In this document: positions 13,676-57,605 of the stretch, in pieces
Layout: every line of letters begins with the position of its first letter
Numbering within the stretch: position 1 is the first letter of the stretch
Origin: a virus
DNA: 64,000 bases
IMG/VR virus record: IMGVR_UViG_3300002835_000070
Coordinates: 1 to 64,000 of that record
Strand: one strand, 5' to 3'
Translations under genes and position numbers: made by a program
Notes under the pieces: model-generated
The model's input: only the letters and a program-made list of their open reading frames with translations
Database searches by the model: none
What the model was told of the DNA's origin: nothing

Positions 13676-13680
13676 ATGCC

Positions 13681-13688: not shown

Positions 13689-13718
13689 TAATCAAGAAAT
13701 TTTTAAATAACAACAAAA

Positions 13719-15112: not shown

Positions 15113-15113
15113 A

Positions 15114-16388: not shown

Positions 16389-16489
16389 AAAAAAACCTGC
16401 GTTAATGGCAAGTAGGGAAACTTCGTGAAAAATTGTACATAAAGTAGCGAAGTTTCAAGGGCTGAATTTAATAACTAATTCAAAAGAAA

Positions 16490-19418: not shown

Positions 19419-20663
19419 ATGTTTAAAGCTATGAAAAACAACCAATTAGATTATTCAGACTACTACGCAGACGGTGGTAAAGTTGACAAAGCAATTCCTC
19501 TTAACATAAGAAAACAAATCTACGATGCAGACGGAGAAAGAATAATTGACCCCGAAGCAATAGAAGTGCTTACTAACTACGCTGAAAATTTACCTCAAAC
19601 AAAAGACTTAAATACAAGCAAAACAACGGGAGAATATTATCCTGCAAGAAAAAAGCTACACGAAAAAATAATGGAATCTTTTAAAGAGGATTTGATTTGT
19701 ATTCAAAACGATGAGCCTATTGCTATTCTTATGGGTGGTTCTCCTGCAAGTGGGAAAAGTACATTTTTAAGAAAATACGCTCCTTACTTGTTAAAAGAAG
19801 AAATATTAAAAGTTGATGCTGACGAAATTAGAGCCAAACTACCTGAATACAAAGGTTGGAACGCTACTTCTACGCACCAAGAAACAAAAGATATTGTAAA
19901 TACACTTTTGAGTGACAGAACTATTGGTATTCCTTGTAAGTATGATATTATTTATGACGGAACTATGAATAGCACCAAGAGTTATTATCCACTAATTGCC
20001 CTATTGAAAAAATTGGGTTATAAAATATTTATCGTTTACATTGACAAAGTTGATGAGGCGGTAGTAAAAAAACGTGCTTTAGAAAGGTATAAAAAGAGTG
20101 GGCGATTTGTTCCTTTGGCGGTAATCGATGATTTCTTCACAAGGGGCAAAAGCGCACTTAATGAACTAAAAAGCAAAGCAGACGGGTATATGATTGTTGA
20201 CGGTTCAGGTGTAGATTATAATGTAATTGAGCGTGGAGGAATGAATTTACCTAAAAGACGTGCCTACTCAAAATTAGGTGTTCCAATTGCGGAATTAGAA
20301 AAACAACGTAAAATGGAATATGGCGGGAATACTTTTACTTTAAATGCTAAAAACCCAAAAAGTATTTCAGGAAGAAGCCTAACTCCACTACCTAAAATGA
20401 ATTACGGTTCTAATAGAAGTGTTTCAATGAGTGATAAGAAATTTGCTCAATGGTTATACGATAATGCTTTAGAAGAAGTAAAAGGCGATGATTATAGAAC
20501 GACTTTAGTTAAAGCGTTAAATCCAAGCAGACTTTCTCCTGCTGATTATGATTTCTTGAATTTGGTTCTTTTTGACCAAACCAATTGCAAGATAACCTAC
20601 GAAGACGGTGGTATTACCGAAAGTGGTACGCCTGACTATTTAGAAATGTTTTTAGGAAAATAG
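19419..20663 (+). CDS. Modular protein with a zeta-toxin-like P-loop kinase domain
   Basis: GGSPASGKST, DADEIR, IIYDGT; domain bounded by YYADGG and MEYGG; C-terminal YLEMFLGK. Confidence 0.88.
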   Translation: MFKAMKNNQLDYSDYYADGGKVDKAIPLNIRKQIYDADGERIIDPEAIEVLTNYAENLPQTKDLNTSKTTGEYYPARKKLHEKIMESFKEDLICIQNDEPIAILMGGSPASGKSTFLRKYAPYLLKEEILKVDADEIRAKLPEYKGWNATSTHQETKDIVNTLLSDRTIGIPCKYDIIYDGTMNSTKSYYPLIALLKKLGYKIFIVYIDKVDEAVVKKRALERYKKSGRFVPLAVIDDFFTRGKSALNELKSKADGYMIVDGSGVDYNVIERGGMNLPKRRAYSKLGVPIAELEKQRKMEYGGNTFTLNAKNPKSISGRSLTPLPKMNYGSNRSVSMSDKKFAQWLYDNALEEVKGDDYRTTLVKALNPSRLSPADYDFLNLVLFDQTNCKITYEDGGITESGTPDYLEMFLGK

Positions 20664-20667
20664 GTAT

Positions 20668-21585
20668 ATGAAAAATTTCGCCTTTATAATAGTAATTCAA
20701 AACATAAAAAATCCAAACTTAATTTTAAGTGGTGGGATTAAAAACAAGTATAAAGGTGCTTACAATAAAATTTTTGACATTTTAAATGAAGATTTTGTAT
20801 TTGTTGAATTTGGAAGCGAAGATGAAGAGTTAATTGGAAATGATTTTTATTTATATTTTAATCTCACTCCTGATTTAGAAAAATTACATAGAATAACTAA
20901 AATACCAAATGTGAAAATAATCAGTCAAACATATAGTCAAGGAGGGTTAATAGCACCTAACGGAAAGCCAAGCAATCTAAATGCTACGCAGTATGAATTA
21001 GTTCGTACAACTGACTTTAAAAAGTGGTTTGGGGATTGGGAAAACGACCCTGATAATGCGAGTAAAGTTGTTGACGATAATGGAGAGCCTTTAGTTGTTT
21101 ATCATAATTCTAATATAGAATTTAATGTATTTGAATTAAAAGGATTATCTGATGGTTTTTTCTTTACAAAAAACATTGAAGATGAAGAATTTTCACAAAA
21201 AGGGTGGTTAAAATCTGAAGGTTTAACATACGAACAAGCAATAAAAAAAGGTTATGATTTAAAATACGAAAAAGTAAAACCTTACTTTTTAAATATAAAA
21301 CAATTTTTTACAGAAAAAAATGTTAAAAAACAATTTTGGAGTACACCTTATTTTGAAAATAGGGTTATTGAGTTTTCAAAAAGAAATAAAAAAAATGATG
21401 GGGTTGAATTTTTACGAGAAATAGATAACAAGCAAATAATAGTTGCTTTTTATCCAAACCAAATTAAACTTGCTGACGGAACGAATACTAAATTTGATTC
21501 AAGTAGTGACGACATAAGATTTGAGCAAGGTGGCGAAAATAAAAGCGGTACGCCTAATTATTTAAGAATGTTTTTAGGAAAATAG
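20668..21585 (+). CDS. Polyvalent-protein-type ADP-ribosyltransferase-like module protein
   Basis: FKKWFGDWE...SKVVD.NGEPLVVYH...GFFF...FLNIK...AF.PNQIK; C-terminal YLRMFLGK. Confidence 0.75.
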   Translation: MKNFAFIIVIQNIKNPNLILSGGIKNKYKGAYNKIFDILNEDFVFVEFGSEDEELIGNDFYLYFNLTPDLEKLHRITKIPNVKIISQTYSQGGLIAPNGKPSNLNATQYELVRTTDFKKWFGDWENDPDNASKVVDDNGEPLVVYHNSNIEFNVFELKGLSDGFFFTKNIEDEEFSQKGWLKSEGLTYEQAIKKGYDLKYEKVKPYFLNIKQFFTEKNVKKQFWSTPYFENRVIEFSKRNKKNDGVEFLREIDNKQIIVAFYPNQIKLADGTNTKFDSSSDDIRFEQGGENKSGTPNYLRMFLGK

Positions 21586-21589
21586 GAAT

Positions 21590-23884
21590 ATGAAAAACGA
21601 GTTATTAGCACCTAACGGAAAGCCAAGCAATCTAAATGCAACCCAATACAAATTGGTTCGCACACCTGCGTTTAAAAATTGGTTTGGGGATTGGGAAAAC
21701 GACCCTGCTAATTCGAGTAAAGTTGTTGATGAGAACGGAGAGCCTTTGGTTGTTTATCATAGGACTAAAACAAAGTTTTATGAGTTTAATTCAGGTTCAA
21801 ATCTTATTGGGTGGTTAGGCAGAGGTTTTTATTTTTCTCCAAACAAAAACGAATTTAAGGAATACGGAAGAAGCGTTTTGAGTTGTTTTTTAAACATAAA
21901 AAATTTATTTGTATCTAAAGGCGAAGATGATGGATATTTGTTTAGCGAAGTTAAATCAATGAATAAAAGTAATGTTTTCAATGAAATAGATATTTCTCAA
22001 ACATTAAAAGAAAATGGCTATAATGGCGTTTTATTAAAACATTGGGATAGAGGTGTTATAATCAATTGTTTTGAGCCAAACCAAATAAAACTTGCTGACG
22101 GAACTAATACAGAATTTGATTCGAGCAGTAATGATATTAGATTTGATATGGGTGGTACTATTTTATTAGCACCTAATGGAAAACGAAGCAATCTAAATGC
22201 CGAGCAATATAAATTGGTTCGCACTCCTGCGTTTAAAAAATGGTTTGGAGATTGGGAAAACGACCCTGCTAATGCGAGTAAAGTAGTTGACAGAAATGGA
22301 GAACCTTTGGTTGTATATCACGGAACAAATACCGATTTTACAATATTCAGTTTAGAAAAAGTTGGGTCAAATGTAGATTATGGAATGTGGGGAAGTGGAT
22401 TTTACTTTTCTCCTTTGAGGTCATTTAGCAAAAATTATGGTAGTAGGTTATTAAAATTATTTTTAAATATTAGAAATCCATTTGTAAAGAATCCAAACAT
22501 TCAAGGAAGTAAGTCACAATTCAAGCCTGTTTACGGCAAGGAAGCATCTCTTAATTTAAGAAATGAAATATTGTCATATAATTATGACGGGGTTTTACAA
22601 TTTGAATCAGGAGAGAAAAACCCGCTTACTCAAATTATTGCATTTGAGCCAAACCAAATAAAACTTGCTGACGGAACTAATTTAACTTTTGATTCGGAGA
22701 ATGACGACATAAGATTTGAGCGAGGCGGGGAATTAAAAGCAGAAGATATGTTAAAGCACCCTTTGACAATCAAAAGATTACAAGACCTTGACGATAATGA
22801 TGGGTATTGGGTTAATCAGTATCACGCCAAAACAAAGAACTATAAACCAAATACCTATTACCATTTAAACACAAATAGTGGTCTTAATGCAGGTGTTGGA
22901 AAAGGCTTGTATCTTGGTAGAGATAAAGATGCTTTAATTTCATTTTATGATTTAGAGGGCGAAAATAAAACAGTAGATACTTATGTCGGAAATCCAAATT
23001 GGTTCGATTTAATGGACTATGCCGATTATGACCGATATGAACAAGAAGCGATTAGAAAATATGGTAAAAACTATGTTTCAAAAAACTCTATTTCTGATAT
23101 AGACATTAGAGGCGAAATGTTGAGAAAACTTGCTATTGAAAAAGGGTTTGACGGAATAAGATATTATGACCCTCAAGCAACAGGCGAAGAGTTTGTTTTG
23201 TTTGACGTAAAAAAGGTAAAAAAAATTGATGACGATTTTAGATTCAAAAATGGTGGTCGTACAGTAGCACAAACACCCGCACCGAAGAAAGACCGTGTGT
23301 ATGGAAGCGATTTGAACAAAAATAATTCTTCAAAAAGCGTATCAAGCGCAAAAATGATTAAATTTGACGAAAATACGCTTGAAGCTATAAAAAATAAAGT
23401 TCAAACACATAATGAGCAATACCCTGATAAAAAAATAAATTTGTCAAGTGCTAAAGCAGTTGTCCGTAGAGGAATGGGTGCTTATTCAAGTTCGCATAGA
23501 CCAACTATTTCAGGTGGAAAACCAAATAGTAGAGTTGCTTGGGGATTGGCAAGATTAAACGCCTTTACATACAAAATTGTAAACGGTAAAAGCAAGTCAG
23601 GAAAATACAGTCAAGATGATGATTTGATTGAAGAATTAGGGTTTAAGGTTGCTGATTATAAAAATGGTGGAGAAATGAGTAAAGATATAAGATGTATCAA
23701 CTGCGGTTGGGAATGGGATAGAAAAGATTCAGAATTATGGGATATGTACGTTTGTCATAAATGCGGTTTTGACAACACATCGTTTTACACTTCTGACCCA
23801 ATTAATCAGTTGTTAAAAGGTGGTAGATTAAATTCAAATAAAGGAGTTAATCCTGAATATTTAAAAATGTTTTTAGGCAAATAG
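21590..23884 (+). CDS. Modular polyvalent protein: 2-3 ART-like modules, DUF5824-like module, Zn finger
   Basis: Two APNGK.SNL...FK.WFGDWE...PNQIK repeats; RRGMGAYSSSHRP...WGLARLNAF; CINC/CHKC; modules separated by FxxGG. Confidence 0.75.
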   Translation: MKNELLAPNGKPSNLNATQYKLVRTPAFKNWFGDWENDPANSSKVVDENGEPLVVYHRTKTKFYEFNSGSNLIGWLGRGFYFSPNKNEFKEYGRSVLSCFLNIKNLFVSKGEDDGYLFSEVKSMNKSNVFNEIDISQTLKENGYNGVLLKHWDRGVIINCFEPNQIKLADGTNTEFDSSSNDIRFDMGGTILLAPNGKRSNLNAEQYKLVRTPAFKKWFGDWENDPANASKVVDRNGEPLVVYHGTNTDFTIFSLEKVGSNVDYGMWGSGFYFSPLRSFSKNYGSRLLKLFLNIRNPFVKNPNIQGSKSQFKPVYGKEASLNLRNEILSYNYDGVLQFESGEKNPLTQIIAFEPNQIKLADGTNLTFDSENDDIRFERGGELKAEDMLKHPLTIKRLQDLDDNDGYWVNQYHAKTKNYKPNTYYHLNTNSGLNAGVGKGLYLGRDKDALISFYDLEGENKTVDTYVGNPNWFDLMDYADYDRYEQEAIRKYGKNYVSKNSISDIDIRGEMLRKLAIEKGFDGIRYYDPQATGEEFVLFDVKKVKKIDDDFRFKNGGRTVAQTPAPKKDRVYGSDLNKNNSSKSVSSAKMIKFDENTLEAIKNKVQTHNEQYPDKKINLSSAKAVVRRGMGAYSSSHRPTISGGKPNSRVAWGLARLNAFTYKIVNGKSKSGKYSQDDDLIEELGFKVADYKNGGEMSKDIRCINCGWEWDRKDSELWDMYVCHKCGFDNTSFYTSDPINQLLKGGRLNSNKGVNPEYLKMFLGK

Positions 23885-23918
23885 CGTTATCGTAAAATAT
23901 AAAAAAATATATTTAAGA

Positions 23919-28964: not shown

Positions 28965-28972
28965 TAAAAAAA

Positions 28973-30732
<1,760 letters not shown>

Positions 30733-30733
<1 letters not shown>

Positions 30734-32145
30734 TGGAAGATAATACAAAAGAGATAGAAAAATTTCAAAGAATTATAGACAATTTCCCTGCTGATTCAAC
30801 TGCGGTTAAAGTTGCAAAAGAAAAATTAGCGCAAATTCAAGAACGTAAAAAAGTTGAAGTTGACAAAGATTTTTCGGGAGTAGTAACGTCAATTAATACA
30901 TTGATAGACAAGGTGTACAATACATCGGCAAATACTTCAAGTAGAGATATTGATAATGCTATCAACGAGAGGTTGAAGAAGATGAAAATTAACGAAAATA
31001 ATTTATCTCCTGAACTTAAAAAGTTGATTGGCGAAACAAAAACTATTGAGGTAAAAGTCAATAATGTAAAAACGTTTAGCGGAAAAACAGGCGAAGACCG
31101 TAGATTGATTGATGTTTTGTTATCTGATTACGAAGCCCAAAACAACGTGTATTTATACGGAGAAGCGGGAACTGGTAAAACATTTGTCGCAGGTATTATC
31201 GCTGATAGAATCAACTACAAGCTAATTACTTTAAACTGTAATCAATATACTTCTCCGTTAGATATTTTAGGAGGACAAACAATTGACGGTTATCAAGAGG
31301 GTAGGCTTACTGAAGCGTGGGGCAACATTGAATTAGGTTTAAATGCTAAAAACGAACCTTACGAGGGTGCTTTATTGCTTTTAGACGAGTTACCTAAAAT
31401 CGACCCTAATACGGCAGGTTTATTAAATGACGGTTTAGCGAAAATTAAAGATGCCGTTAAAGTTGTTGAATTGGCTAATAAAACTACAATAGAAGTTCAG
31501 CCAACAATATCAAATGGTAGAGGACAAAGGATACCAAGAGCAAAGATTTTTATCATTGCAACAGGTAACTCTTTGCTTAATGAGGCGAACAAAGATTACG
31601 AAGCGAATTTCAAACAGGATTTATCTTTACAAGACCGTTTCGCAGGAAGTTGTTACAAAATTACTTATAACTACAAATTTGAGTACGATAAAATAATGAC
31701 TAATATATCATCGGAAAGTTTCCCTGACGGAACTGTGATTGATATGACTTTTGCATTTAACTTCTTGGCTCAATTGCGTCAGCAAATTGTAGAAGATAGA
31801 TTAACGGGAATTGCTTTCGTTTCAACTCGTTTGATGATTGTAGCAAGAGATACGTTTGTTGCTTTTCTTGTAAATAGAGAAGAAACTCCGAACAAAATAC
31901 CAAGACCTAAAAAATTAAGTGAGGTTGTGAAATCATTCTTGGCTTTATTCTCTGAACAACAAAGAGAAAGTCTAATTCAAAAGTTAGATAGTCAGTTCAA
32001 AGAATTTTACGCTATTTGCGAAGTTAAAGACGTTACGCCTTTAGACCAATTAGGTACTTCGACAGAATTAGAGAGAAAAACTGCGGAACTAATAATCGAG
32101 GAAGCAGAAAGAAAATATGCTGAAAATAGTGCAATCCCTTTATAA
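30733..32145 (+). CDS. MoxR/CbbQ/CobS-type AAA+ ATPase
   Basis: Walker A GEAGTGKT, Walker B LLLLDE, IATGN, QDLSLQDRF. Confidence 0.88.
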
Positions 32146-32148
32146 AAA

Positions 32149-33738: not shown

Positions 33739-33739
33739 T

Positions 33740-34015
33740 ATGATAGCAGAAGCAACAAAACGGAAAAAATATTACCAAGATTTTGGTAAACACAAAAACG
33801 TATCTTTGAGTAAACTTCAGGTTTTGAAACACCCTGAAATTCCAAATACATTTTTTATTCACGTTAATTACCACATCGGAGAGGGTGGTATTTACAAGGA
33901 AGCAGAAATACTTGAATCATACGATACCGAAAAGGGTTGGCAGAATTTAGAAAGAGAAATGACACGTTTGGAGTACGGTGCTTTTTTAGGCGATTTAAAG
34001 CCGACAGAAATATAA
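33740..34015 (+). CDS. Hypothetical protein
   Basis: Operon packing. Confidence 0.6.
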   Translation: MIAEATKRKKYYQDFGKHKNVSLSKLQVLKHPEIPNTFFIHVNYHIGEGGIYKEAEILESYDTEKGWQNLEREMTRLEYGAFLGDLKPTEI

Positions 34016-34031
34016 TTTAAAAAGGTAAGAA

Positions 34032-35102
34032 ATGGAATTAATAATGGATTATAAAGAGGGGAATTTAATAATGGATGATATATCAGGTAGATTATACTTG
34101 GTATCTTTCAAGACCCTTTACAACTTGGTTTTAATAGAATTTCAAAGAGATATTAGAGAACGCAGACCATATTCAGATTGGCAAAGTAATTTACCTTTGT
34201 TTACTTGGAAAAACTATAACTTGACAAATAAAGACGACATTAATGAACTAAATAACAATTTTAATATTACGCTTGACCCTAAAAAAATATCAAGATATTA
34301 TCCAAATGTTTACGGAGTTGAAGTTGGTTCTGTTGTTGAATTTGACTATAAGCAAATGATGTTAATTGGAGAAACTGAAAGAAAAGTTTTGACTTTTAAA
34401 TTAACACGACCTGTTTTGTTTGATTTTAACAAAGTAAAAGAAAAATACATCGTATTTGATAGGCTAAATAAATTAAACGAGTTACAACAAGATTTTAATA
34501 GTAATTGGGCTGATTATTTTGTAACCCCTTTATCTTCTAAAGAAAATATTGATTGGGTTGTAGTTAAAGACAGGTTGCCTTTTGAAGAGGTTATCGGTAA
34601 AGAGTTTATAATTAATGAATTTGTTCATACGCCTACTGATAAAATTACTTTAAATGATTTTATGGAAGTCATAGATACTAAAAAGCTAAATAAAATTGCT
34701 GACGAGAGTATTAAGAACGAAATAATCAATTTAATTAAGCAAACTTTGGTTCTTGCTAAAGAAAACGAAACTATTGGTATTAAAGGCGAACCTGCTAAAC
34801 CAAAGGAGAAAGAAAATAAATTTAAAGTTGAATACACTTTCAAATTAAATGCTTCTGATAAAGACGTTTTAACCGAAATTTATGATATTTTTGCAACAGA
34901 CGAAGAAGAAGCTATAAAAAAGGCTCAAAAAGAATTTTACGATATTTACGAGGGTTTAAATTACGATTTAATTTCAGTATCTTTGGTTGAAGATGTTGAA
35001 CAAAAAGAACCTGTCGAACCAACAGTTGAAGTTCCTCTTACTAAAGAACAAGAACAAGAACTTGAAATGCTTAATAATTTGCTGATGTCAACAATGCAAT
35101 AA
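34032..35102 (+). CDS. Hypothetical protein
   Basis: 356-aa ORF. Confidence 0.7.
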   Translation: MELIMDYKEGNLIMDDISGRLYLVSFKTLYNLVLIEFQRDIRERRPYSDWQSNLPLFTWKNYNLTNKDDINELNNNFNITLDPKKISRYYPNVYGVEVGSVVEFDYKQMMLIGETERKVLTFKLTRPVLFDFNKVKEKYIVFDRLNKLNELQQDFNSNWADYFVTPLSSKENIDWVVVKDRLPFEEVIGKEFIINEFVHTPTDKITLNDFMEVIDTKKLNKIADESIKNEIINLIKQTLVLAKENETIGIKGEPAKPKEKENKFKVEYTFKLNASDKDVLTEIYDIFATDEEEAIKKAQKEFYDIYEGLNYDLISVSLVEDVEQKEPVEPTVEVPLTKEQEQELEMLNNLLMSTMQ

Positions 35103-35170
35103 AATTAATCAGATTAATTAAAATTTAAAAGACTTATTAAAAACATACGAATAATAAAAAAATTGAAAAT

Positions 35171-38100
35171 ATGAACCTTACTTTATTAAAAAAATACGAA
35201 ACTCTTGAAATTTCTAAAGTGTCTGAAAAAGACCAAAAGACTTTGGAACAAGTAAAAAAACTTCTTAATAATTTTGAAGAAACCAATGAGGCAAAAAACA
35301 AAGTTGGCGAACAAATATTAGACCAAGTTATAAAGTTGAATCCTGATGCCGTAAAAAAGCCACAGGTGGTTGCTCAAAAAGTTGCTAAAGTAAAACAAGT
35401 CGCTAAAGCGAAAAAAGTTACTCAAGCGAAAAAACCTGCAACCACTTCTACTGCTAAAACTTCGGGCAATAATATAATGTCAGTTGCTAAAGAAATTCAA
35501 AAAGCAGGAGAATCTTGGAAAGATGCTATGGAACGTGCTAAAACAGTTCTTAAAGAACGTAGAGGTCAAGTTGCAGAGCAAAAGAAAACTGAATTGGAAA
35601 AACTTTTGGCTCTTGTGAGAACTAAAAAAGAACTTCAAGGATTTGCTAATTCCGATATTAAACGTGATGCGGTAAGAGAAGCAAAAGTAAAAGGAGCAAG
35701 ATTTGTAACCAAAGAGGGTTCTACTTCAAATGCCTATGGTACTTTCCCTAATAAGTTAGGTAGAAAGTATTGGGAAACTCGTGACCGTCACTCTGACCGT
35801 TTAGCACCTAATTACCCAAAAGATATGCCTTTGTTGGCTAAAGGTGGTAATGTATCTAACGAAGAAAAGTTGCTGAAAGAGTTACATAAACTTCAAAGAG
35901 ATTTGAATAGCAGTAGATTAAGTACTTACAGAGAGGGCGATGATTCTCAAGAAGAAAAAGACAGAACAAGAGAAAGAGAATCTAAACTTGCTCGTTTCAA
36001 TGAGATTTTAAAAGTATTAAGAGAAAGTGATGCTAAATTTGCTAACGGTGGCTCACTTCCATTTATGACAGACCCTAACTTTGGAAACTTCCAAAATACA
36101 GGTTCGTTTGCTGACGGAGGGGATTTAGATAAATACAAGTTAGAACTTTACGATATGGATTATGCTTTTATTTCATCTCCTAAACTTTCTGAATTAAAAA
36201 AAGAATTTGCGAATGAAATAAAAAACAAAGGTTACAAGGTATTTGATTTACCTACATCACACCCTGATTATAAAAGAGGGAATAAATGGGGGCTTTTTAA
36301 ACCAAAATCTTTTGAACTTGGTGGCGCATTTATGACAACTGATTTAGCAGGTCATTCAGGCGGTGGTACGGGCGGTTTAAATGCCGATATGCCTTTAAGC
36401 GGGGTTTCAGGAACTAACTACACGGGTCTTGTTGGAGAAACAGGTGCTATGTCAAGCGGAGAGTTGTTTATGGACGGTGGGGCTATGGCTCAAAACCAAC
36501 AAGTAATCAATGATGCTTCTCAATCTTATGTTAACTACTACTTGGGCGAGGGCGCAAGTCAAGGTATTTACAAAGACGGTGGTTCTATTCCTAATAATTA
36601 TGAGGGAAGAACTCCTGAAGATGTTTGGAATAATTGGGATTTATCACAAAAATTACATTTTTTAAGTGACCACACCGAAGAAGTTTACGGAAAAGCATCG
36701 GTAAAAGGAGAAACGAATAATGAAATAAACGAGTTTTTTGGAAAATTAATTTATGAAAAATATGACGACTTACCTATAAATATAAAAGTTGCTTTAGTTA
36801 TGCACACTACTCGTGGTCAATACGCAAGTGGTGGTGCTTTAAAAGACGTTGATGATAATCTTTATGTTTCTATTTCAAAAACAGAAGACGATTATTGGTT
36901 TATTACTTCAAAACCAACAACAAAAAAACAAGCCGAAGAAATGGCTAATTTAGTTACTCCAATGAGAGGAGAGGTTAATGATGTAAAAACTGTTGGTCAA
37001 GTAAAGGCTCACTCAAAAGTGATTTACGAAAATGGTGGTGCTTTCGCTCCAAGCGTTTCAAACGGAACTGAATTTATGAGTGGGGTTTATGCTAATGGTG
37101 GTTCTATGTCAGAAGACATATCCGAGTGTAAAAAACTTGTTTCTGCTTTCTGTAAAGAATTTGGAGATAAATTTGGTCTAAATGAAGAAGCGATTTTAGA
37201 AAAAGTAAAATTTAGAGATTATCTTGGAAATGGGGCAAGTGTTTTCGTTAGTCTTTCCGTTACTTCAAATGTTGAAGATTTAAAGGTGGGAGAAACAAGA
37301 CCGACAGGAGGTTATATAATTTTTACAAGCGACATCAATCCAAACGGAGTTACGGGTAAAGACGATATTGCAAGAACTTACAGTATTGACATTGAAATAA
37401 AAGGTGTTAAAAGATATACTCAAAGAAGAACTGAAGAGGGTAGATACTTTAAGTCTTACAATTATGGAAGAACGATTGAGGAGGCTATGGACAAAACTGA
37501 TACTAAAATAATTTACGACTTATATTCTTTAGAGAAAAAAGACGATTTAAAATTTAAAATGAGTAGTTTATTTGCTGACGGTGGTGCTTTCGCTCCAAGC
37601 ATTTCAAACGGAACTCAATTTATGAATGGGGTTTACGCTAATGGTGGTTCGGTAAATGATTCAGTAATTGATGAATTGTGGAATGGTTATGCTTCGGCAG
37701 TTCTTTTCACGGAAACTGATTCTGATTCAGGAGAGCCACTTGATAGCGAATATTCTGTTTCTGATTTCGACAAAGAAACTGTAACTTCAACTAAAAAAAT
37801 GTTGGCTGATTACTATTCAGAAAACAAAGATGCCATTGAAGAAAGCGGACTTGATTTAGATACTATCGGAAATGATATTTGGTACACAAGAAGCAGACAA
37901 GGCGTAGGTTTCTTTGACCATAGTCTTGATGAAGAAGTAGAAGAAAAACTAACCAAAGGTGCAGAAGCACTTGGAGAATACCCAAGCGTTGAAACTTATG
38001 ACGGAAAAATTTCTGTAAGAGGTGGAAAGGTTTTTGCTAAAGGCGGAAAAATAAAAGTTGGAGGCGATGATTTTACTTTTTTACTTGACTTATCGGATAA

Positions 38101-41100
38101 AGAATTGCAAGAAAGATTGGAATTGGTTAATAAGCAAAAAACTATTAACGCTAAAAAATATTTTGAAGCGAAAGATAAAAAAGAAAATACTTCTAAAATA
38201 GAAGAGGCGGGTACAAGATTAGATAATCAATGGTATGCAATAGTTGAAGCAAGAAGTATAAAAAATTTCGCCAAAGGCGGTTTTGTTGGTACGGTTGAAT
38301 TCAACGTAGGAGATACTGTTTGGCAAAAAGACGAAAAAAGATACGCAACTGTAATGAATAATTATGGCGACCCTATCAATGGAGATTATGGAGAATTAAG
38401 ACTTGATACAACAGGGAATACTCTAATATTTACTTCTGATAAAGAATACAATACAACAGGCTATAATCTTATCAAACTTGGAGAAAAAGGCGACACGGGT
38501 AAATTCACTCCTGAAGTTCTTGAAGATATGAAAGCAAGTGCAAACCGTCTTATTGAATCAAGAAGACAAGGTAAGGATAAAGAGGGTGTTGCTTACTATC
38601 AGGAAGTTTACAAAAGACTTCTTGACGGAGAGTTTGATTCTATGGCAGGTGGTGCTAAAGCGACTGCTTCTAACAAAAAAAGTTCAGTTGATTATACTTA
38701 CGTTCCTAATAAAGACGTAAAAGAATTGAGCGTTGTAGTTAAGGGCGAATTAAAGAAATTAATGGGTTCTGATATACTTGACGGGGTTTACGTTAAAAAT
38801 TCAGCGAAATCTACTGCGAAATCTACTGCAAAAGTAGATGCAAATGCCGTGTTTGCTAAAATGCTTAAAGATGCAAAAGAAGCAAAAATCGGAAAGACGA
38901 AAAGGTTTACCGTTACTGATTTAAAAAAATTAAATCTTGAAATGGTTCAAAAACTTGTAGAGGCAGGTTACACCGAACAACAAATAAGAAATATTATTTT
39001 TGGATATGCTTTTGATAACGAAATTGTGGCTGACAACGAACTTGAATACGATAAGGGTATTTTTTCTTACGAAGACACTTATGTTAAAAGCAAAATCGAG
39101 GGTTTAGTTGAGGCTCAAAAAAACAAAGAGTTTGCAGTTGGTATTGAATACCCTGACTTTGATTGGCAAGGTATCATAAAGAAATATAAAATATCTTCAA
39201 AACCTAAAGACATAACTGAAAAACAAAAAGGTACTTCAGGTTCTACCGAGAACTACTATGAAGTTTTTGTTGGAGAAAATATAGTGATAGGTCATAATTA
39301 CGGATATAAATGGCTTGATGCTGACGGAAAAGTGTTAAGTAATTATATGGAAGAGGATAAAAAAGTTTCTGACCCTACTAAACAAAATGCTTGGCAAAAA
39401 GAAAGAGGACAAAAAGCAGGTTTCAACGGAGGTTGGTGGACTATTATTTCTTCTAAAATAGAAATTATTGACGATGTATTGAAAACTTTACTTGCTCAAA
39501 AGGGTAGTTACTGTAAAGAGATACAATTTTATGACGATTCTTTACCTAAAGCCTTAAAAGAAAACAAGATTGATTTTGAACTTGGGGGAGATTTTGCTCC
39601 AAACGTTTCAGACGGAACTCAATTTATGGGCGATGTTTATGCTAAAGGCGGAAAACTTACAAAATATATCGACCACGATGATATTAAAAGCGTTACCTTA
39701 AAATTAAAAGGTAAAGTTGTAACTGTTGCAGGTAGTGATGTTTTGAATGGTGCAAACATATTAAAAGACGGTGGAGATTTAAGTAAAATTGCAAACTACG
39801 TTGGTAAAAACGATGTGGTTTCTGTTGAACTTAAAAACGGAGAAACTATAAAACCTGCAAATGGATATTGGGTAAAGAAAGGGGCAGAGCCTCTTTCTGC
39901 TCCAAGTTCAAAACCTGTTAGTAAAACAGGTGCGAGATTTAAGTTTGAAGTTGGCGATAAAGTAATGGTTGATGATTCGGGTTATGTTACCTCTTTTACA
40001 GAATTTGACTTATCTAAACCTGCCGAAATTATTGACAGGTCTGTATCGAAAATGGGTGGAAAAACTTATTACTTTTATAAGTTGAAAATGGCTGACGGTA
40101 GAACTGCTTTTAATCAGGCAGAACAAAGTAAATTGACACTTGCACAAAACACAACGCCTACTTCTAAAAAAGATGTTAATAAGTTAGTCGCTCCAAAGGG
40201 ATATGTTTTTGTTAATTCAGGAAGCCATAGAGCAACCCAACAAATAAATAGAAGTGATGTAAAATACATTTCGTTGTACTCATTTGGAGGTTCTAACACA
40301 AGTGCAGGGACTACGATTATGTTTATGACCGAAAATGATTATGAAAAAATTAAAGGCGTAAGAGGTGTTTCTCCTGCTAAAAGTTATCTGTCTGCAAAAT
40401 CTCAATGGTTTTCAAGACAAGAAGATAAAAAATTAGACACTTTATTTAGAGAAATTGAACAAAAAGAATCTTTTGGTTATGCTGACGGTGGAAGTACTGA
40501 TGAAGTTGCCAAAATAAAAGTATCAAGTCCTGACGGAAAATATGTAGATACTTGGTACATTACAAAAGATACCGATACAACTCACTTTTACATATCAAAT
40601 TCTACTGAATCAAAAGGAGTGCCGTATCACGTTGGTCAATTTAGAAGCGAGGTTTTTTACGAAGATTTAAGAAGTTGGTTAAAAGGCGGTACTAATATTG
40701 ATGGAAAAGAATATAAAACCAATTCTTACGCTAAAGGCGGAGAAATGCAAGGAAATAACATTGATGCTGAATTACAAGACTTCGATTTAGATAATTTAGA
40801 CCCTATTGAAACGATGCAGTATAATCATTTTGTAAAAAGTTCAGGCAAAGTCGGTGCGTTGCAGGTTTTAATAAATAGCGTTGAGGGCGACTATTCTCAA
40901 TTAAGTCCTGAATTGGCTGAATTGGCTGAAATGCAATTGTCAACCGAAGAATGGGACGAAATGACAAATGAACAAATAAGAGAAGAATATAGCTATGCTA
41001 AAGGCGGAGATGTTGAAGAAAGGTTAGTTGGAAGTTTTTACTATGACTCAAGAAAAGACAAAACTTTTAGAATAATTTATTCTGATAAAGATAAAATATC

Positions 41101-41974
41101 AATACAATATTTTGATAAATCTAAAAACCCTGTTGGTAAAATAGAAGACGTGCAAAGAAGTGAGTTTGAATATTTAACAAATATGGGTGCTTGGGGAAAA
41201 TATAAACAATCTTATTTTGCTGATGGCGGATTTATGAATAATGTTTACGCTAAAGGTGGAGATTTAAAAGGCAAATTTTTAGCTGAAATCGGAGTTCCTT
41301 ACAATTTTGAATATGTTGTTGAAGATGAGTACGAATTTTCTCGATTTTTATCAAAAGCCTTAACTAATAAATTTAATTTCGGAAACGGTGCTTGGGGTAT
41401 TAAAATAGTAAAACCATTATTTGAGAAAAACTACGGGCAAAAAATAGTTGTTGAAATTGACATACCTTTAGGTGTAACTCAAGGTGGCGGGTTAGATAAG
41501 TTTGACGTTTTAGAATTTATGTCAAAAACATTAACTAAAAAATGGTTTGGTAACGGTGTTTGGAGTGTTGAAGTTGTTAATAGTTATGCTGACGGTGCTA
41601 TGTTAGACGACAACGAGGGGTTTATGAAAGCAGATAACGAAAACAATTACAGATACCCTGAAAGAGAAGTTCACGTTGATACTCTTGACGAGCCAATTGA
41701 CTTGACTAATAAAGTAAGTCGCATAAGTGGCAAGATTGATACTCTTGACGAGCCAATTGATTTAAAAAGTAATGTAAGTCGCAGAACTAACGATGTTGTA
41801 ATTAGAACGCTTGACGAAAGTGCTGATTTGAATGACGACAAAAGAGTAAGAGCAAGAATGAGTTACAATCCAAAAGACAGAAACCCTGACAAACTTTTAA
41901 GTGTAAACCCAAGAGCGTTTGAGTTCATAAAGGATTTACCAATGCCTACATCAAACACACATAAAAACGATTAA
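35171..41974 (+). CDS. 2267-aa modular protein with about 20 [FY]xxGG-delimited segments (putative polyprotein)
   Basis: Repeated FADGG/YAKGG/YANGG/FELGG; recurring linkers AFAPSVSNGTEFMSGV and FMNNV. Confidence 0.8.
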   Translation: MNLTLLKKYETLEISKVSEKDQKTLEQVKKLLNNFEETNEAKNKVGEQILDQVIKLNPDAVKKPQVVAQKVAKVKQVAKAKKVTQAKKPATTSTAKTSGNNIMSVAKEIQKAGESWKDAMERAKTVLKERRGQVAEQKKTELEKLLALVRTKKELQGFANSDIKRDAVREAKVKGARFVTKEGSTSNAYGTFPNKLGRKYWETRDRHSDRLAPNYPKDMPLLAKGGNVSNEEKLLKELHKLQRDLNSSRLSTYREGDDSQEEKDRTRERESKLARFNEILKVLRESDAKFANGGSLPFMTDPNFGNFQNTGSFADGGDLDKYKLELYDMDYAFISSPKLSELKKEFANEIKNKGYKVFDLPTSHPDYKRGNKWGLFKPKSFELGGAFMTTDLAGHSGGGTGGLNADMPLSGVSGTNYTGLVGETGAMSSGELFMDGGAMAQNQQVINDASQSYVNYYLGEGASQGIYKDGGSIPNNYEGRTPEDVWNNWDLSQKLHFLSDHTEEVYGKASVKGETNNEINEFFGKLIYEKYDDLPINIKVALVMHTTRGQYASGGALKDVDDNLYVSISKTEDDYWFITSKPTTKKQAEEMANLVTPMRGEVNDVKTVGQVKAHSKVIYENGGAFAPSVSNGTEFMSGVYANGGSMSEDISECKKLVSAFCKEFGDKFGLNEEAILEKVKFRDYLGNGASVFVSLSVTSNVEDLKVGETRPTGGYIIFTSDINPNGVTGKDDIARTYSIDIEIKGVKRYTQRRTEEGRYFKSYNYGRTIEEAMDKTDTKIIYDLYSLEKKDDLKFKMSSLFADGGAFAPSISNGTQFMNGVYANGGSVNDSVIDELWNGYASAVLFTETDSDSGEPLDSEYSVSDFDKETVTSTKKMLADYYSENKDAIEESGLDLDTIGNDIWYTRSRQGVGFFDHSLDEEVEEKLTKGAEALGEYPSVETYDGKISVRGGKVFAKGGKIKVGGDDFTFLLDLSDKELQERLELVNKQKTINAKKYFEAKDKKENTSKIEEAGTRLDNQWYAIVEARSIKNFAKGGFVGTVEFNVGDTVWQKDEKRYATVMNNYGDPINGDYGELRLDTTGNTLIFTSDKEYNTTGYNLIKLGEKGDTGKFTPEVLEDMKASANRLIESRRQGKDKEGVAYYQEVYKRLLDGEFDSMAGGAKATASNKKSSVDYTYVPNKDVKELSVVVKGELKKLMGSDILDGVYVKNSAKSTAKSTAKVDANAVFAKMLKDAKEAKIGKTKRFTVTDLKKLNLEMVQKLVEAGYTEQQIRNIIFGYAFDNEIVADNELEYDKGIFSYEDTYVKSKIEGLVEAQKNKEFAVGIEYPDFDWQGIIKKYKISSKPKDITEKQKGTSGSTENYYEVFVGENIVIGHNYGYKWLDADGKVLSNYMEEDKKVSDPTKQNAWQKERGQKAGFNGGWWTIISSKIEIIDDVLKTLLAQKGSYCKEIQFYDDSLPKALKENKIDFELGGDFAPNVSDGTQFMGDVYAKGGKLTKYIDHDDIKSVTLKLKGKVVTVAGSDVLNGANILKDGGDLSKIANYVGKNDVVSVELKNGETIKPANGYWVKKGAEPLSAPSSKPVSKTGARFKFEVGDKVMVDDSGYVTSFTEFDLSKPAEIIDRSVSKMGGKTYYFYKLKMADGRTAFNQAEQSKLTLAQNTTPTSKKDVNKLVAPKGYVFVNSGSHRATQQINRSDVKYISLYSFGGSNTSAGTTIMFMTENDYEKIKGVRGVSPAKSYLSAKSQWFSRQEDKKLDTLFREIEQKESFGYADGGSTDEVAKIKVSSPDGKYVDTWYITKDTDTTHFYISNSTESKGVPYHVGQFRSEVFYEDLRSWLKGGTNIDGKEYKTNSYAKGGEMQGNNIDAELQDFDLDNLDPIETMQYNHFVKSSGKVGALQVLINSVEGDYSQLSPELAELAEMQLSTEEWDEMTNEQIREEYSYAKGGDVEERLVGSFYYDSRKDKTFRIIYSDKDKISIQYFDKSKNPVGKIEDVQRSEFEYLTNMGAWGKYKQSYFADGGFMNNVYAKGGDLKGKFLAEIGVPYNFEYVVEDEYEFSRFLSKALTNKFNFGNGAWGIKIVKPLFEKNYGQKIVVEIDIPLGVTQGGGLDKFDVLEFMSKTLTKKWFGNGVWSVEVVNSYADGAMLDDNEGFMKADNENNYRYPEREVHVDTLDEPIDLTNKVSRISGKIDTLDEPIDLKSNVSRRTNDVVIRTLDESADLNDDKRVRARMSYNPKDRNPDKLLSVNPRAFEFIKDLPMPTSNTHKND

Positions 41975-41986
41975 TTTAAAAATACT

Positions 41987-44900
41987 ATGAAGTTATTTAA
42001 TAAAACAATAGACAGACAATTATTCAATCAATATTCACTTGGTAGTAACCTCTCTAAACAAGAGGTTGTTGTCAAGATATTCAATCCTATGGGGAATGGA
42101 AGCTGGTATATTTTAAATTCTGACCCCAATGACCCTGATTATCTTTGGGCTATTGTAGATTTAGGATATGGTGCTGAAGTAGGTTCAGTAAGCCGTAGCG
42201 ACCTTGAAACGTATAGAGGTCGATTTGGATTAGGATTTGAGCGTGATTTAGGTTTTGACCCAATTAACGCTGAAGAACTTTATAACGGTTTGAGAGAGGG
42301 TAAATTTTACGCTGACGGTGGCAACATTGAAAGTTTCAGCGATAACCAACGTATGATTATGAATCAAAACGTTGAGGTAGAACATCATCACGAGGAATTG
42401 GAAGATATTTTAGAAGATAAAGTTCCTGTTCCTGCTTGGGTAGTTGCAAAAATGGAAACTGCAACGCAAAACCTTTCCGACATTACTCATTACCTTGACG
42501 GTAAAAAAGAGTTGATGGAGGAAGAAAACGAAGAAGAGGACGAAGACGAGGAAGAGGACGAGGAAGAGGACGAAGACCAAGACGATATTAAAAATCAAAA
42601 TGTTGTCGAACCAATAAACGTGTCTGCGGGAACTAAAGCAGAATTGACTAAAAAATTTACTGACGATGCTTTGGGTAATTTTAAAGGTTTCTTGAAAGGT
42701 ATGGAGGGAGTTGACTTGCGTGAAGACTACACGTTTGATTACAAGGACGAACAATACGAAGTTGAGCCAATTGTTAACTCTGATGAAAACGGTGTTTCAA
42801 ATGCCGTGTTTAGCATTTTTGACGGAGACGGAGAAGAAGTTGGGGAAGTTACTTATAGCCGTGACGGTGGAAAACAAAAGTTTACTGCTAATTCGGAATT
42901 TTTCGGTTGGAATAATGCAAAGTTTGAAGACGGTGGGTTTATGAATAATGTTTACGCTGACGGGGGAGAAATAAGTCTTTGGAAAGCAGAGCCAAATAAC
43001 AAACCTGAAAAATTAAAAACTTTTAAATCATTACGGGCTTATAATACTTATATGAATAAAAACCGTGAATTTTTTAGAGATGAACATTCTAAAAACGGAA
43101 CAGGATTTTATGGTTTTGAAGCAGATGTAACTGAAAAAGAAGTTGAAAGCAGTATAGAAAATCTATATGATTCTAATAATAAATATGCTAACGGTGGATA
43201 TTTTGACGGAACTATACCGAAAGTTTCTACTTATATGAGTAATTATGCTAAAGGCGGAGAAGTTGCCAAAGCAGAAATTCTTGGTTTGAGTAAAAACATA
43301 ATGGGAACTACTGATATTGAAATGAAAATTTCAGGAATGAGAAAATCTCAAGACTTTAGTGTTTACCCAATTGGTAAAGATGATACAGACCAAATTATTA
43401 CAATTCAATCTGAAACAAGAATTGGTAAAATAGATTTGTCAACAGGTCGTGGATTAATGAGCCAAAGTCATTCTAACGGTGCTTACTTTGTACATTTTCA
43501 AATGGACAATCTTACTAAATTTACTGTAAGCGAAAGCGACTTAGAAGAATTGAAAATGTACATTTTTAAAACTGCGGGTTCTAATGTTGGAAGTTCAATT
43601 GTAAAATCTGACAATTCAGGGGCTTCGGGCGTTTATGAAGACGGTGGTTCTGTAAAAAGAACAAGGCGAACAAAAAACCAAATAAGGAAAGACGAATACA
43701 ATAAAGAAGTTGATTTATATAATTGGTATATTGTAAATTTTTTAGAAAATAAAGTAGAATCAGGATTTGAATATAAAGAAGATGCTGTTGACTTACTTTC
43801 TGATTATGATGGAGATAAAAATTTTAAAGTAGTATCTAAAAAAACCTTAAAAACTTTAGGAATTGAAATACCTAATGAAAATTGGAAATATGCTGACGGT
43901 GGCTTTATGAATAATGTTTACGCTAAAGGCGGTAAAATTGATAACTCACATAATTATCGATTATTAGATAGATTACGTTCAGATAACGATTATTTTTTAG
44001 GTAATGGAAACAGGTCTGAAAAACATTTGTGGGCGGGTAATGTAGATGCTCAAATAAAAGAAATGAAGCGTTTGTGGAATAACTTACCTGAAGATGCAAA
44101 ACCTGAATGGTTAAGTATGGATGATATTTTAGAATACGAACAAAAAATGAAAAAGCAATACGCTGACGGTGGCTTTATGAATAATGTTTATGCTGACGGT
44201 GGTAGAGTTAGTAATGAAGACTACGAACAAAGACTTCAATATTTAAAAATGATGAAGAACAATGAACCTACTGATTTAGGTAAATACAGAATTGACAAAG
44301 AAATCAGAGAAATAAATACAATTTTAAACCATAGAGGAAATCTAAAAAATTCTTACGCCAAAGGCGGAAGTTTAGAAGATAAACTGACTAAACTTGAAAA
44401 CAAAAAATCTGAATTAGAATCAAAATTATTTGAAGCTAAATTAAAAGAATATAAAGTTATAGAAAATATGGGTTGGGGTGCAGGTATGAGAAGAAGTAAG
44501 GTTAGTATCAGCACAAGACAAACAGATTCTTTAAAAGAAAGAATTAAACTTGTGGAAAAGGAAATAGAGCAAACCAAAATAGATATTTTGCCAAAAAAAC
44601 CTAAATACATTCTTAAAGCAGACATCAAAACCGTTACACTTAAACGTAATGGCAAGGAGGTTACTTACAGTGGTGCTGATGTTCTAAATGGTGCTAACGT
44701 ACTTGCGAAAGGCGGAGATTTGACTTCAAAAGCAAATTACATTCCAAAACGTGATGTAGTTTCTGTTGAGTTGAAAGATGGAACTACCGTTAAGCCTGTA
44801 AATGGGTATTGGGTTAAGAAAGGTGCTGAACCAATTGGAGGACAACCAACGCCTACTTCTTCAGGAAAATCAGAACCTAAAATTAGTACAACTGAAATTA

Positions 44901-45526
44901 GAAAAGATGCAAGAGGTAATTGGAGAGCGGAAAACACAGTAGATGATTTTAACGGTTACGATTGGAGAATATCTACCGTTAAAACTTATAGTGGTAATTT
45001 AGTTTCTTCTGCTCAAGGAGGTAAAACAGAGCCGACAGGAACAAAAGGTTATAGTATTTTTAAATATACTATGTATCAAGACCCAAATCATACTTTAGAA
45101 GTTTCTAAACCAAAAAGATTGACTGATAAGGTAGTTTCTGAACAACACGAAAAAGCATTAGCCAAGTTCAAAAAGTTTATGGAAACAGGAATGTTCAAAG
45201 GCGGAGGTAAAATCTCCAACTTTGATAAACTTTCTGATAAAGTAGCAAAAGAATACGAGGGAATACCTGTTAAGAGCAAATACCAAGAGCAATATGGTAG
45301 ATACTATTCTAAAGAAGAAGCACAGGAAGTTGGCGATAAAGTTGCGGGAAAAGTAAAGGCTATGCAATCTGCTAAAAAGATGTCAGGCGGTAGTACAGAC
45401 GGTAAAAAATCAAATAGCGGAGCAGAAACCCTAAAAAAAGCAAATGATTTAGCTAAAAAAATCCGTATGGATGGAGAGAGTTGGAACAATGCTAAAAAAA
45501 GAGCCTTTGCCCAATTAAAAAAATAG
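41987..45526 (+). CDS. 1179-aa modular protein: DUF2958 N-terminus, LPD11-like module, about 12 [FY]xxGG sites
   Basis: KIFNPMGNGSWY...GAEVGSVSRSDL...FERDLGF (DUF2958); YRLLDRLRSDNDYFLGNG...LWAG...KPEWLSM (LPD11-like). Confidence 0.8.
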   Translation: MKLFNKTIDRQLFNQYSLGSNLSKQEVVVKIFNPMGNGSWYILNSDPNDPDYLWAIVDLGYGAEVGSVSRSDLETYRGRFGLGFERDLGFDPINAEELYNGLREGKFYADGGNIESFSDNQRMIMNQNVEVEHHHEELEDILEDKVPVPAWVVAKMETATQNLSDITHYLDGKKELMEEENEEEDEDEEEDEEEDEDQDDIKNQNVVEPINVSAGTKAELTKKFTDDALGNFKGFLKGMEGVDLREDYTFDYKDEQYEVEPIVNSDENGVSNAVFSIFDGDGEEVGEVTYSRDGGKQKFTANSEFFGWNNAKFEDGGFMNNVYADGGEISLWKAEPNNKPEKLKTFKSLRAYNTYMNKNREFFRDEHSKNGTGFYGFEADVTEKEVESSIENLYDSNNKYANGGYFDGTIPKVSTYMSNYAKGGEVAKAEILGLSKNIMGTTDIEMKISGMRKSQDFSVYPIGKDDTDQIITIQSETRIGKIDLSTGRGLMSQSHSNGAYFVHFQMDNLTKFTVSESDLEELKMYIFKTAGSNVGSSIVKSDNSGASGVYEDGGSVKRTRRTKNQIRKDEYNKEVDLYNWYIVNFLENKVESGFEYKEDAVDLLSDYDGDKNFKVVSKKTLKTLGIEIPNENWKYADGGFMNNVYAKGGKIDNSHNYRLLDRLRSDNDYFLGNGNRSEKHLWAGNVDAQIKEMKRLWNNLPEDAKPEWLSMDDILEYEQKMKKQYADGGFMNNVYADGGRVSNEDYEQRLQYLKMMKNNEPTDLGKYRIDKEIREINTILNHRGNLKNSYAKGGSLEDKLTKLENKKSELESKLFEAKLKEYKVIENMGWGAGMRRSKVSISTRQTDSLKERIKLVEKEIEQTKIDILPKKPKYILKADIKTVTLKRNGKEVTYSGADVLNGANVLAKGGDLTSKANYIPKRDVVSVELKDGTTVKPVNGYWVKKGAEPIGGQPTPTSSGKSEPKISTTEIRKDARGNWRAENTVDDFNGYDWRISTVKTYSGNLVSSAQGGKTEPTGTKGYSIFKYTMYQDPNHTLEVSKPKRLTDKVVSEQHEKALAKFKKFMETGMFKGGGKISNFDKLSDKVAKEYEGIPVKSKYQEQYGRYYSKEEAQEVGDKVAGKVKAMQSAKKMSGGSTDGKKSNSGAETLKKANDLAKKIRMDGESWNNAKKRAFAQLKK

Positions 45527-57362: not shown

Positions 57363-57605
57363 ATGAAAAAAAGTAGATTTAGTAAGTTATGTCTAAAAGA
57401 CCTTTCACGGGGTGTGATAATGACAGTAGGTACAACTTTTGTAGGGTTGTGTAGCACAAGTGTAGTTTCGGGAATATTTCCTGCGGTTGCAGATTTTATT
57501 AATATGGGTAAGGTAGGTTTGCTTTCAGGAGCAGTTTATTTAGTTAAAAACTTCCTTACAAACTCAAAAGGCGAATTTTTAAAACAAGAAGAAGATGTCG
57601 TATAG
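57363..57605 (+). CDS. Putative holin
   Basis: Two hydrophobic segments, YLVKNFLTNSKG tail, overlaps the endolysin start. Confidence 0.65.
   Translation: MKKSRFSKLCLKDLSRGVIMTVGTTFVGLCSTSVVSGIFPAVADFINMGKVGLLSGAVYLVKNFLTNSKGEFLKQEEDVV

Follow-up and report, generated by a model that had tools for sequence, protein, structure and literature searches.

Gly-Gly junction peptides mark the cassette borders of giant polyvalent proteins in a bacterial virus, with a core zincin as a possible processing protease

A stretch of 64,000 nucleotides from a virus (hereafter the window, corresponding to positions 1–64000 of the 102,228-bp IMG/VR record IMGVR_UViG_3300002835_000070) raises the question of what a short Gly-Gly peptide, repeated many times within six large proteins, is for. 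These proteins, designated here P1–P6 (open reading frames, ORFs, beginning at 19419, 20668, 21590, 23919, 35171, and 41987, all on the plus strand), comprise 6,610 amino acids (aa) together. A preliminary description of the window, made from the sequence alone, had proposed that they are arrays of effector modules parted by this peptide and cut at it into small host-takeover or anti-defence proteins. As shown below, the motif marks the joints between cassettes, on which four lines of evidence agree: profile matches, AlphaFold modelling, the ends of homology blocks, and the insertion of a cassette. In P1–P6 each cassette bears the junction at its C-terminal end, in the form [YF]-[AE]-[DKN]-G-G-x-[IVLMF]. 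As to the function of the junction, a virus-encoded protease may recognize and cut it, and this reading is weighed below against a structural, a recombinational, and a docking role.

The earlier count of about 50 motif copies in the six proteins is fair, and so is the expectation that they are enriched there. The pattern [FY]xxGG occurs 46 times in P1–P6 as compared with 4.2 ± 2.0 times in residue shuffles (a maximum of 11 in 1000 shuffles), while a looser hydrophobic-x-x-GG form gives about 60 sites, including false ones within folds, such as ILMGG at residues 103–107 of P1, near the beginning of the Zeta-toxin domain. The strict form [FY][AE]xGG is found 38 times in P1–P6 and not once in the remaining 13.6 thousand residues of the plus-strand ORFs of the window; only two copies occur outside the motif-rich giants in the whole genome. 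The coding pattern TWYGCNNNNGGNGG has 27 matches, all of them in the P1–P6 genes and in frame, with a single match on the other strand and a single one for the control. The same confinement is seen in four genomes, each of which holds the strict motif in 2–4 giant proteins, with no more than three copies elsewhere.

All the domain borders named in the preliminary description (Zeta toxin, ADP-ribosyltransferase (ART) modules, DUF2958, LPD11, and DUF5661) hold according to Pfam and segmentation. P1 (19419..20663, 414 aa) consists of a 20-aa leader ending in YYADGG, a Zeta-toxin cassette (21–303), a 95-aa cassette (304–398), and a 16-aa tail ITESGTPDYLEMFLGK; its Pfam Zeta_toxin match (94–262, E 2e-24) lies within the interval from YYADGG to MEYGG. 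P2 (20668..21585, 305 aa) has a 93-aa N-terminal cassette, an ART-PolyVal cassette (Pfam match at 136–276) ending in DIRFEQGG, and the same tail as P1. In P3 (21590..23884, 764 aa), two ART cassettes, matched by ART-PolyVal (PF18760) in two stretches above the curated cut-off (E 2e-48), precede cassettes of 176, 138, and 51 aa, the last being Cys4 zinc-ribbon-like, and the tail; the start of P3 corresponds to the position after GG of internal copies (MKNELLAPNGK versus GG-TILLAPNGK). Joining of P1, P2, and P3 by stop-codon read-through was considered and rejected, since their genes occupy three different frames. P4 (23919..28964, 1681 aa) combines a motif-punctuated part (1–414), in which DUF5661 (278–332) is flanked by FELGG (263) and LKDGG (339), with a 1000-aa body (415–1414) that has several internal repeats and zero motif copies, and with an ART-like C-terminal cassette ending in DWRFETGG-KVN-stop. 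The latter resembles the ART cassettes of P2 and P3 in its end (the ART modules end in DIRFEQGG, DIRFDMGG, DIRFERGG, DFRFKNGG, and DWRFETGG), yet it has no Pfam match. P5 (35171..41974, 2267 aa) is without any Pfam domain and is divided by 20 [FY]xxGG junctions into about 24 cassettes of 10 to 436 aa, including 21-aa double joints of the form F-A/E-x-GG-AFAPSxSNGTxFMxGV-YAxGG. P6 (41987..45526, 1179 aa) carries a DUF2958 cassette, an LPD11 cassette, and about 10 unknown ones; DUF2958 (25–92) precedes FYADGG at 108–112, LPD11 (PF18824, 654–721, E 4e-31, above the curated cut-off) is flanked by YAKGG (649) and YADGG (725–729), and four of the joints are doubled, three as YADGG-FMNNV-YA[DK]GG and one as FEDGG-FMNNV-YADGG. 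Searches of the ESM Atlas with P4 416–1410 and P5 1038–1473 gave no usable match.

None of the strict junctions is crossed by a Pfam match in P1–P6; one PHROG match, to a polyvalent-protein profile of 2,900 positions, crosses the YSQGG junction of P2. In cultured phages LPD11 also exists as a stand-alone protein, and such proteins match P6 at residues 652–724 only, over the motif-bounded cassette. When P1–P6 were compared with the proteins of three relatives, 56% of the homology-block ends fell within 10 aa of a junction versus 16% at random (medians 8 and 44 aa). The 315-aa orthologues of P1 in two of the relatives (G001 and G002) are devoid of exactly the 95-aa cassette, which is sited between two GGs, and the cassette order differs between P2, P3, and their relatives. 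The idea of multi-effector arrays whose modules are parted by the motif is thus borne out, and the junction is conserved at domain borders throughout the lineage.

The overlay of the motif sites on an AlphaFold model of P6 (m46244e06abbd), a check proposed in the preliminary description, places GG in inter-domain coil, in a model of low confidence. The model has a beads-on-a-string appearance and is weak overall (mean predicted local distance difference test score, pLDDT, of only 55.6); all 13 GG dipeptides lie in coil between secondary-structure elements, 12 of them in stretches with pLDDT below 50, structured elements start 2–3 residues past GG, and the aromatic residue ends the preceding helix or strand in several cassettes. 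This last feature, together with the constant coil at GG, is what could be expected if the motif were a plain structural hinge or domain cap, recognized by nothing, with the aromatic residue packed against the domain before it and flexibility provided by Gly-Gly. We consider such a role very unlikely, however, because folds as unrelated as all-alpha, all-beta, ART, and kinase ones would have no common need of one and the same five-residue cap, and the motif is missing both from the P4 body, where its domains adjoin, and from the polyvalent proteins of other phages that have the same modules. Moreover, it also stands where no domain precedes or follows. A leader of 16–20 aa in P1 ends in the motif, P4 ends in GG-KVN with a tail of only three residues after it, and the last GG of each of P1–P3 is followed by a 16-aa tail (..P-x-Y-L-x-M-F-L-G-K and a TAG stop; window 20600–20663, 21522–21585, and 23821–23884), which, as PDYL[KR]MFLGK after the motif, recurs in seven proteins of the P1–P3 type from three genomes. 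At these sites a hinge would have nothing to join, and what fits better is a signal to be removed or a tag to be recognized; the tail of P1–P3 may direct loading or targeting from the C-terminus. The gene following the tail begins 4 nucleotides on, in the +1 frame, in two cases out of three.

The properties of the junction throughout the lineage were derived from 184 related motif-rich proteins (265 thousand aa), which contain 2,295 copies of the loose form and 1,424 of the strict one. Their consensus is [YF]-A-[DKN]-G-G-x-[IVLM]. Alanine makes up 58% of the residues after the aromatic one in the loose-form copies, and the second residue after GG is hydrophobic in 88% of the strict-form copies. 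Against a background of 2.7%, proline occurs in none of the 1,424 strict-form copies at each position from the aromatic residue through the hydrophobic one, with 1 in 1,000 just before it; right after the hydrophobic position it reaches 8%. In the literature searched we found no paper that mentions this junction motif. Its punctuation belongs to the lineage rather than to the modules, as the strict motif is absent from the ART-PolyVal giants of crAss-like cr85_1 and Bacteroides phage BF1-TP2, and GC-rich proviruses with DUF2958 are also without it.

The junctions could also be thought of as recombination joints, where a short common coding sequence would allow the in-frame exchange, insertion, and deletion of cassettes among related viruses, the peptide being merely a tolerated flexible linker. 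The proximity of homology-block ends to the junctions and the cassette of P1 inserted exactly between two GGs are in line with this, as is the presence of a RecT gene in the genome (Pfam), and some joints are nearly identical as DNA: this applies to the FMNNVYA core of P6 in four copies and to the 21-aa double joints of P5 at window positions 37034–37102 and 37580–37648, which have 18 of 19 comparable codons in common while the cassettes between differ, indicating a recent duplication or gene conversion. However, the 38 strict-form copies differ in their synonymous codons at each position, so that most joints share only 5–8 scattered bases, too little for homologous exchange, and selection appears to act on the junction peptide. 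The amino-acid consensus, with its hydrophobic residue after GG and its exclusion of proline, points in the same direction. A mainly recombinational role is therefore, in our opinion, decidedly unlikely, although the roles of recombination joint and cleavage site are compatible.

Judging by their domain composition, P1–P6 belong to the polyvalent proteins as defined by Iyer et al. (2017, J Bacteriol; PMC5512222). At least two unrelated effector or LPD domains are found per chain (DUF2958 and LPD11 in P6, several ART-PolyVal in P3, Zeta toxin and a further cassette in P1), and the signature families of the class, ART-PolyVal and LPD11, are present above the curated cut-offs. The likeness extends to the Zeta toxin (and to DUF2958 in homologues), to mosaicism, and to the location of the genes beside morphogenesis genes. 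Polyvalent proteins were argued to need processing into units by means of an MPTase domain, a peptidase domain that is frequent in the class but not obligatory (PMC5512222); the junction motif is not mentioned in this paper, in whose text the words linker, glycine, Gly-Gly, and diglycine are absent. P1–P6 differ from the class as described in that each cassette ends in one conserved junction, that there is no MPTase, and that the candidate peptidase is a separate and unrelated core zincin. The polyvalent kind of protein is itself known; the literature searched contains no description of the regular code of junctions, of a separate core zincin, or of the lineage that carries them.

Considering all this, we suppose that P1–P6 are polyvalent cargo or host-takeover proteins made of independently folding cassettes, and that the junction peptide is, of the roles considered, most probably both the recognition and the cleavage site of a virus-encoded protease. 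Cutting would release the Zeta-toxin kinase, the ADP-ribosyltransferases, DUF2958, LPD11, and dozens of unknown modules as small proteins, and it would also strip off the N-terminal leader of P1 and the tail PDYL[KR]MFLGK of P1–P3. The best candidate for the cutter is a 261-aa M48-like zincin encoded by a core gene, and we give cleavage by a viral protease, with the zincin in this part, a tentative probability that falls a little short of even. Besides cleavage and the identity of the protease, we infer the exact bond, the packaging in the virion, and the time of processing. As for the bond, gluzincins of the thermolysin-like type usually select a hydrophobic residue at P1', and the cut may thus fall at G-G-x↓hydrophobic (the arrow denotes the bond), which by this analogy would be as likely a scissile bond as GG↓x. 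What suggests that P1–P6 may be carried in the virion is the position of their genes beside the morphogenesis module.

The zincin, picked from the core gene set of four compared genomes, is encoded on the plus strand at genome positions 65177–65962 (L008:1177–1962), 1.2 kb past the window end. It comprises an N-terminal beta-sandwich (1–93) and a zincin-like domain (106–254), has no membrane segments, and contains an invariant HEFSH followed by DESEAD (H188-E-x-x-H192, then E202/E204/D206). HExxH is invariant in 55 close relatives and in 141 of 141 diverse ones, and the residues H, E, H, E, and D are invariant even in 25 distant relatives at 22–34% identity. Its relatives form 1,174 close clusters and, at the 50% level, 744 clusters, and nearly all of them are about 260 aa long. 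An AlphaFold model (pLDDT 91, predicted template modelling score 0.89) has a beta-sandwich followed by an alpha/beta domain, in which E202, E204, and D206 stand at the start of helix 202–215, where a third zinc ligand would be expected. Residues 124–256 match best the M48 peptidase BepA (6sar_A; Z 8.7, root-mean-square deviation 4.0, 117 residues aligned by VIA-align), with further matches to the M48-like 3c37_B (Z 6.9) and to Ste24 (4il3_B, Z 6.0). By its best structural matches, the protein is thus predicted to have an M48-like zincin fold with the active-site residues intact. Like M48 peptidases (BepA/YfgC, Ste24, HtpX), it has a helix bearing HExxH, after which comes an acidic helix, and it differs from them in the short H-to-E spacing (about 10 residues), the N-terminal beta-sandwich, the lack of membrane segments, and the lack of a peptidase match at the sequence level. 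All nine related records with motif-rich giants and a completeness of at least 66% contain the zincin. Among 31 records that have distant zincins, matches to the motif-coding pattern number 225 on the main strand as compared with 9 on the other strand and 5 for controls.

Several observations weigh against cleavage of the junctions, or against the zincin as their protease. Doubled joints with a spacing of 5 or 16 residues would give rise to peptides of 10 and 21 residues without obvious use, the near-identity of the DNA at some joints fits a recombinational role, and the multi-domain body of P4, 1000 aa without the motif, implies that not every domain is meant for release. The zincin belongs to no Pfam family (E ≤ 0.1), a profile search of PDB sequences gave nothing below E 0.25, its structural Z scores are only moderate, and the Foldseek matches are weak. 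Its co-occurrence with the motif is confounded by shared ancestry; moreover, several complete zincin-bearing genomes hold only 2–5 copies of the motif, and the zincin, not being tied to cassette number, must have another or a wider role. Finally, we know of no Gly-Gly specificity among M48-type peptidases.

Some of the same features could be explained if the junctions were not cut at all and served as a multivalent docking handle, bound by a virion or loader protein (for example, a MoxR-like AAA+ ATPase with its partners, the inner capsid, or the membrane). With many handles in each chain, binding would be avid enough for the long beads-on-a-string cargo to be loaded or threaded. An extended two-sided consensus with hydrophobic anchors on both sides of GG, the frequency of doubled joints, and the C-terminal tail conserved in the seven proteins of three genomes agree with this possibility, and so does the cargo protein gp45 of crAss001, which is reportedly kept as a single chain, partly in the capsid and partly in the tail (PMC10172136). 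The AAA+ gene block conserved within the cluster of cassette genes also speaks for it. Five genes lie between those of P4 and P5 (28973..35102, plus strand) and encode a (GQ)n-repeat protein, a MoxR/AAA_5 ATPase (30733–32145; Pfam AAA_5, E 8e-12), and proteins of 529, 91, and 356 aa, none of which contains the motif. The ATPase and the 529-aa protein, in which there is no DxSxS (metal-ion-dependent adhesion site, MIDAS) motif, are matched in three relatives (G001–G003), and the other three only in G001 and G002. The products of these genes may load or handle the cargo proteins, with the ATPase block as a loader or unfoldase. On the other hand, the binding partner of the junction is a hypothetical one, the docking role would leave the conserved zincin without use, and the motifs that lie 3 residues before a C-terminus or 15 after an N-terminus are compatible with docking and cleavage alike. 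On balance, we regard uncut docking as unlikely. The (GQ)n-repeat protein (window 28973–30733, 586 aa), of which only the ends are conserved in relatives, contains a (GQ)n/(GEGQ)n run of about 220 residues, and this low-complexity run accounts for a local rise of the GC content to 40%.

If the junctions are cut, the protease could in principle also be encoded elsewhere. Within the giants themselves none was found, either by Pfam in P4, P5, and the giants of three relatives or by PDB sequence searches of P4 and P5, the latter being empty. Adenain/Ulp1-type peptidases (Peptidase_C5, PF00770; C48, PF02902) gave no match at E ≤ 10 when all 102 kb were searched in six frames, where a very divergent member is possible, and neither family was among the listed Pfam matches of nearly all ORFs of at least 80 aa; MPTase (PF18818) gave none in the same search, including P1–P6. 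Prohead serine proteases (S78, U9, S80, ClpP-like) were not among the listed matches of the Pfam and PHROG ORF scans. The earlier remark that no suitable protease is recognizable in the window proved nearly right: the strong candidate, the core zincin, lies just outside it, and inside there is a weak NlpC/P60-like ORF (57595..58122, plus strand, 175 aa; Pfam NLPC_P60, E 1.6e-4, below the curated cut-off). This ORF was rejected as the protease, as it is found in only two of 10 related records. A 159-aa LRAT/PPPDE-like protein of the NlpC/P60 superfamily with the catalytic-cysteine motif NCEHF (genome 97728–98207; L009:13728–14207) was likewise rejected as a general protease, being absent from all five relatives, three of which are complete; its gene is thus accessory, and the product is perhaps a lipid enzyme.

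The comparison drawn in the preliminary description with the maturation proteases of other DNA viruses turned out to be weak as a statement of membership. Adenain (clan CE, family C5) cuts (M/I/L)-X-G-G↓X, and pS273R of African swine fever virus cuts G-G↓X. Common to these systems and P1–P6 are a repeated GG consensus with an upstream hydrophobic residue in precursors of DNA viruses and short terminal peptides bounded by the motif. Besides the lack of a C5/C48 match, the junction of P1–P6 has F/Y at P5 and not at P4, A/E at P4, and extends to a hydrophobic residue at P2', and the substrates are effector arrays and not core structural proteins. Packaged internal and ejected proteins of tailed phages are processed by prohead proteases, in T4 by gp21, which cuts L/I-x-E↓ (Alt, IPI–III), and in phiKZ-like phages by gp175, which cuts S/A/G-x-E↓. 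Here the similarity consists in virion-delivered enzymes, including an ADP-ribosyltransferase, with short targeting peptides, trimmed by one viral protease at a simple repeated consensus; the motif and the protease class are different, there are one or few sites per protein versus 10–25 cassettes in our case, and P1–P6 are putative virion cargo. Junction motifs are also known in polymorphic toxins (VENN of CdiA and DPxGL of Rhs/YD proteins, the Rhs one being a processing site as well). They too are short conserved peptides at the border between a constant and a swappable module, acting as a recombination joint, but they provide one junction before a single C-terminal toxin in cellular secretion, whereas the viral proteins discussed here have many junctions each.

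A wider use of the junction code is suggested by the sequence of a putative capsid protein (59233..59928, plus strand, 231 aa), the most conserved protein of the lineage (78–90% identity). Its leader of about 45 aa contains FSNADG-F and FFRADGG-M, and has in common with the cassette junction a core of A-x-G(G)-hydrophobic, which suggests a shared code. It is conceivable that a single maturation code operates in this large, abundant, and undescribed lineage of bacterial viruses, the M48-like zincin cutting A-x-G-(G)-x↓hydrophobic both in the leaders of capsid and membrane proteins and in the giant cargo, which would yield dozens of host-takeover and anti-defence enzymes from a few genes; in this full form we find the proposal rather doubtful. 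The putative capsid protein has four diverged paralogues (6650–7174, 14648–15112, 17225–18418, and genome 97286–97750), one of which is a tandem double copy.

As to the virus itself, its record is 100% complete according to CheckV, has a GC content of about 32%, which makes a host among the Bacteroidota probable, and holds almost all genes on the plus strand. No terminase, portal, HK97 capsid, or prohead protease was among the listed matches of the PHROG and Pfam scans of nearly all ORFs of at least 80 aa (the Pfam scans were run in three batches, one of which gave the best 25 of 31 families), and Terminase_6N and Pox_A32, searched separately, had no match in the genome. A 274-aa ATPase with weak AAA_22 and HerA-like (DUF87) matches is conserved in all five relatives tested. 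The carrier lineage, in which tailed-phage hallmark genes were not recognized, counts at least 744 zincin clusters at 50% identity; no cultured relatives were found, as known phages match single cassettes only (LPD11, ART), and no paper in the literature searched clearly describes it. Inverted terminal repeats are flagged in five of the 31 zincin-bearing IMG/VR relatives (G019, G029, G033, G043, and G046; loci L070, L091, L101, L119, and L126) and would fit linear, protein-primed genomes. Other genes include many glycosyltransferases, a 3'-phosphoadenosine-5'-phosphosulfate (PAPS) pathway (ATP-sulfurylase and adenosine-5'-phosphosulfate (APS) kinase), and sulfotransferases (window 1–16400 and genome 84000–102228), a PAP2 lipid phosphatase (window 52896–53543), two SLT lytic transglycosylases (window 46432 and 47909), and, at the left end of the record (window 106–405), a 99-aa fragment matching the TNB domain of Cas12f1/TnpB (E 6e-23). 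Three Gly-rich proteins of 852–1451 aa (genome 77766–81002, 81996–84554, and 84573–88928; L008/L009) have a common 45-aa N-terminus (MAYPNGSIPVTS...) and resemble fibres or spikes that could be exchanged for one another on a single anchor.

Polyvalent proteins are regarded as the earliest weapons that a phage or plasmid sends into the cell, and how one chain of 10–25 unrelated enzymes becomes usable units is a question raised by the very paper that defined the class. An explicit, machine-readable junction code, established from 2,295 copies in 184 proteins, and a single conserved candidate protease make this question of processing directly testable. The code also divides "dark" viral protein, encoded by hundreds of kilobases, into cassettes the size of a domain, whose set is a catalogue of candidate anti-defence and host-takeover modules. 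If the proposed maturation of both virion-protein leaders and giant cargo by the zincin is true, it would represent the first case of a bacterial DNA virus with a polyprotein strategy driven by a metalloprotease, akin to the polyproteins of RNA viruses.

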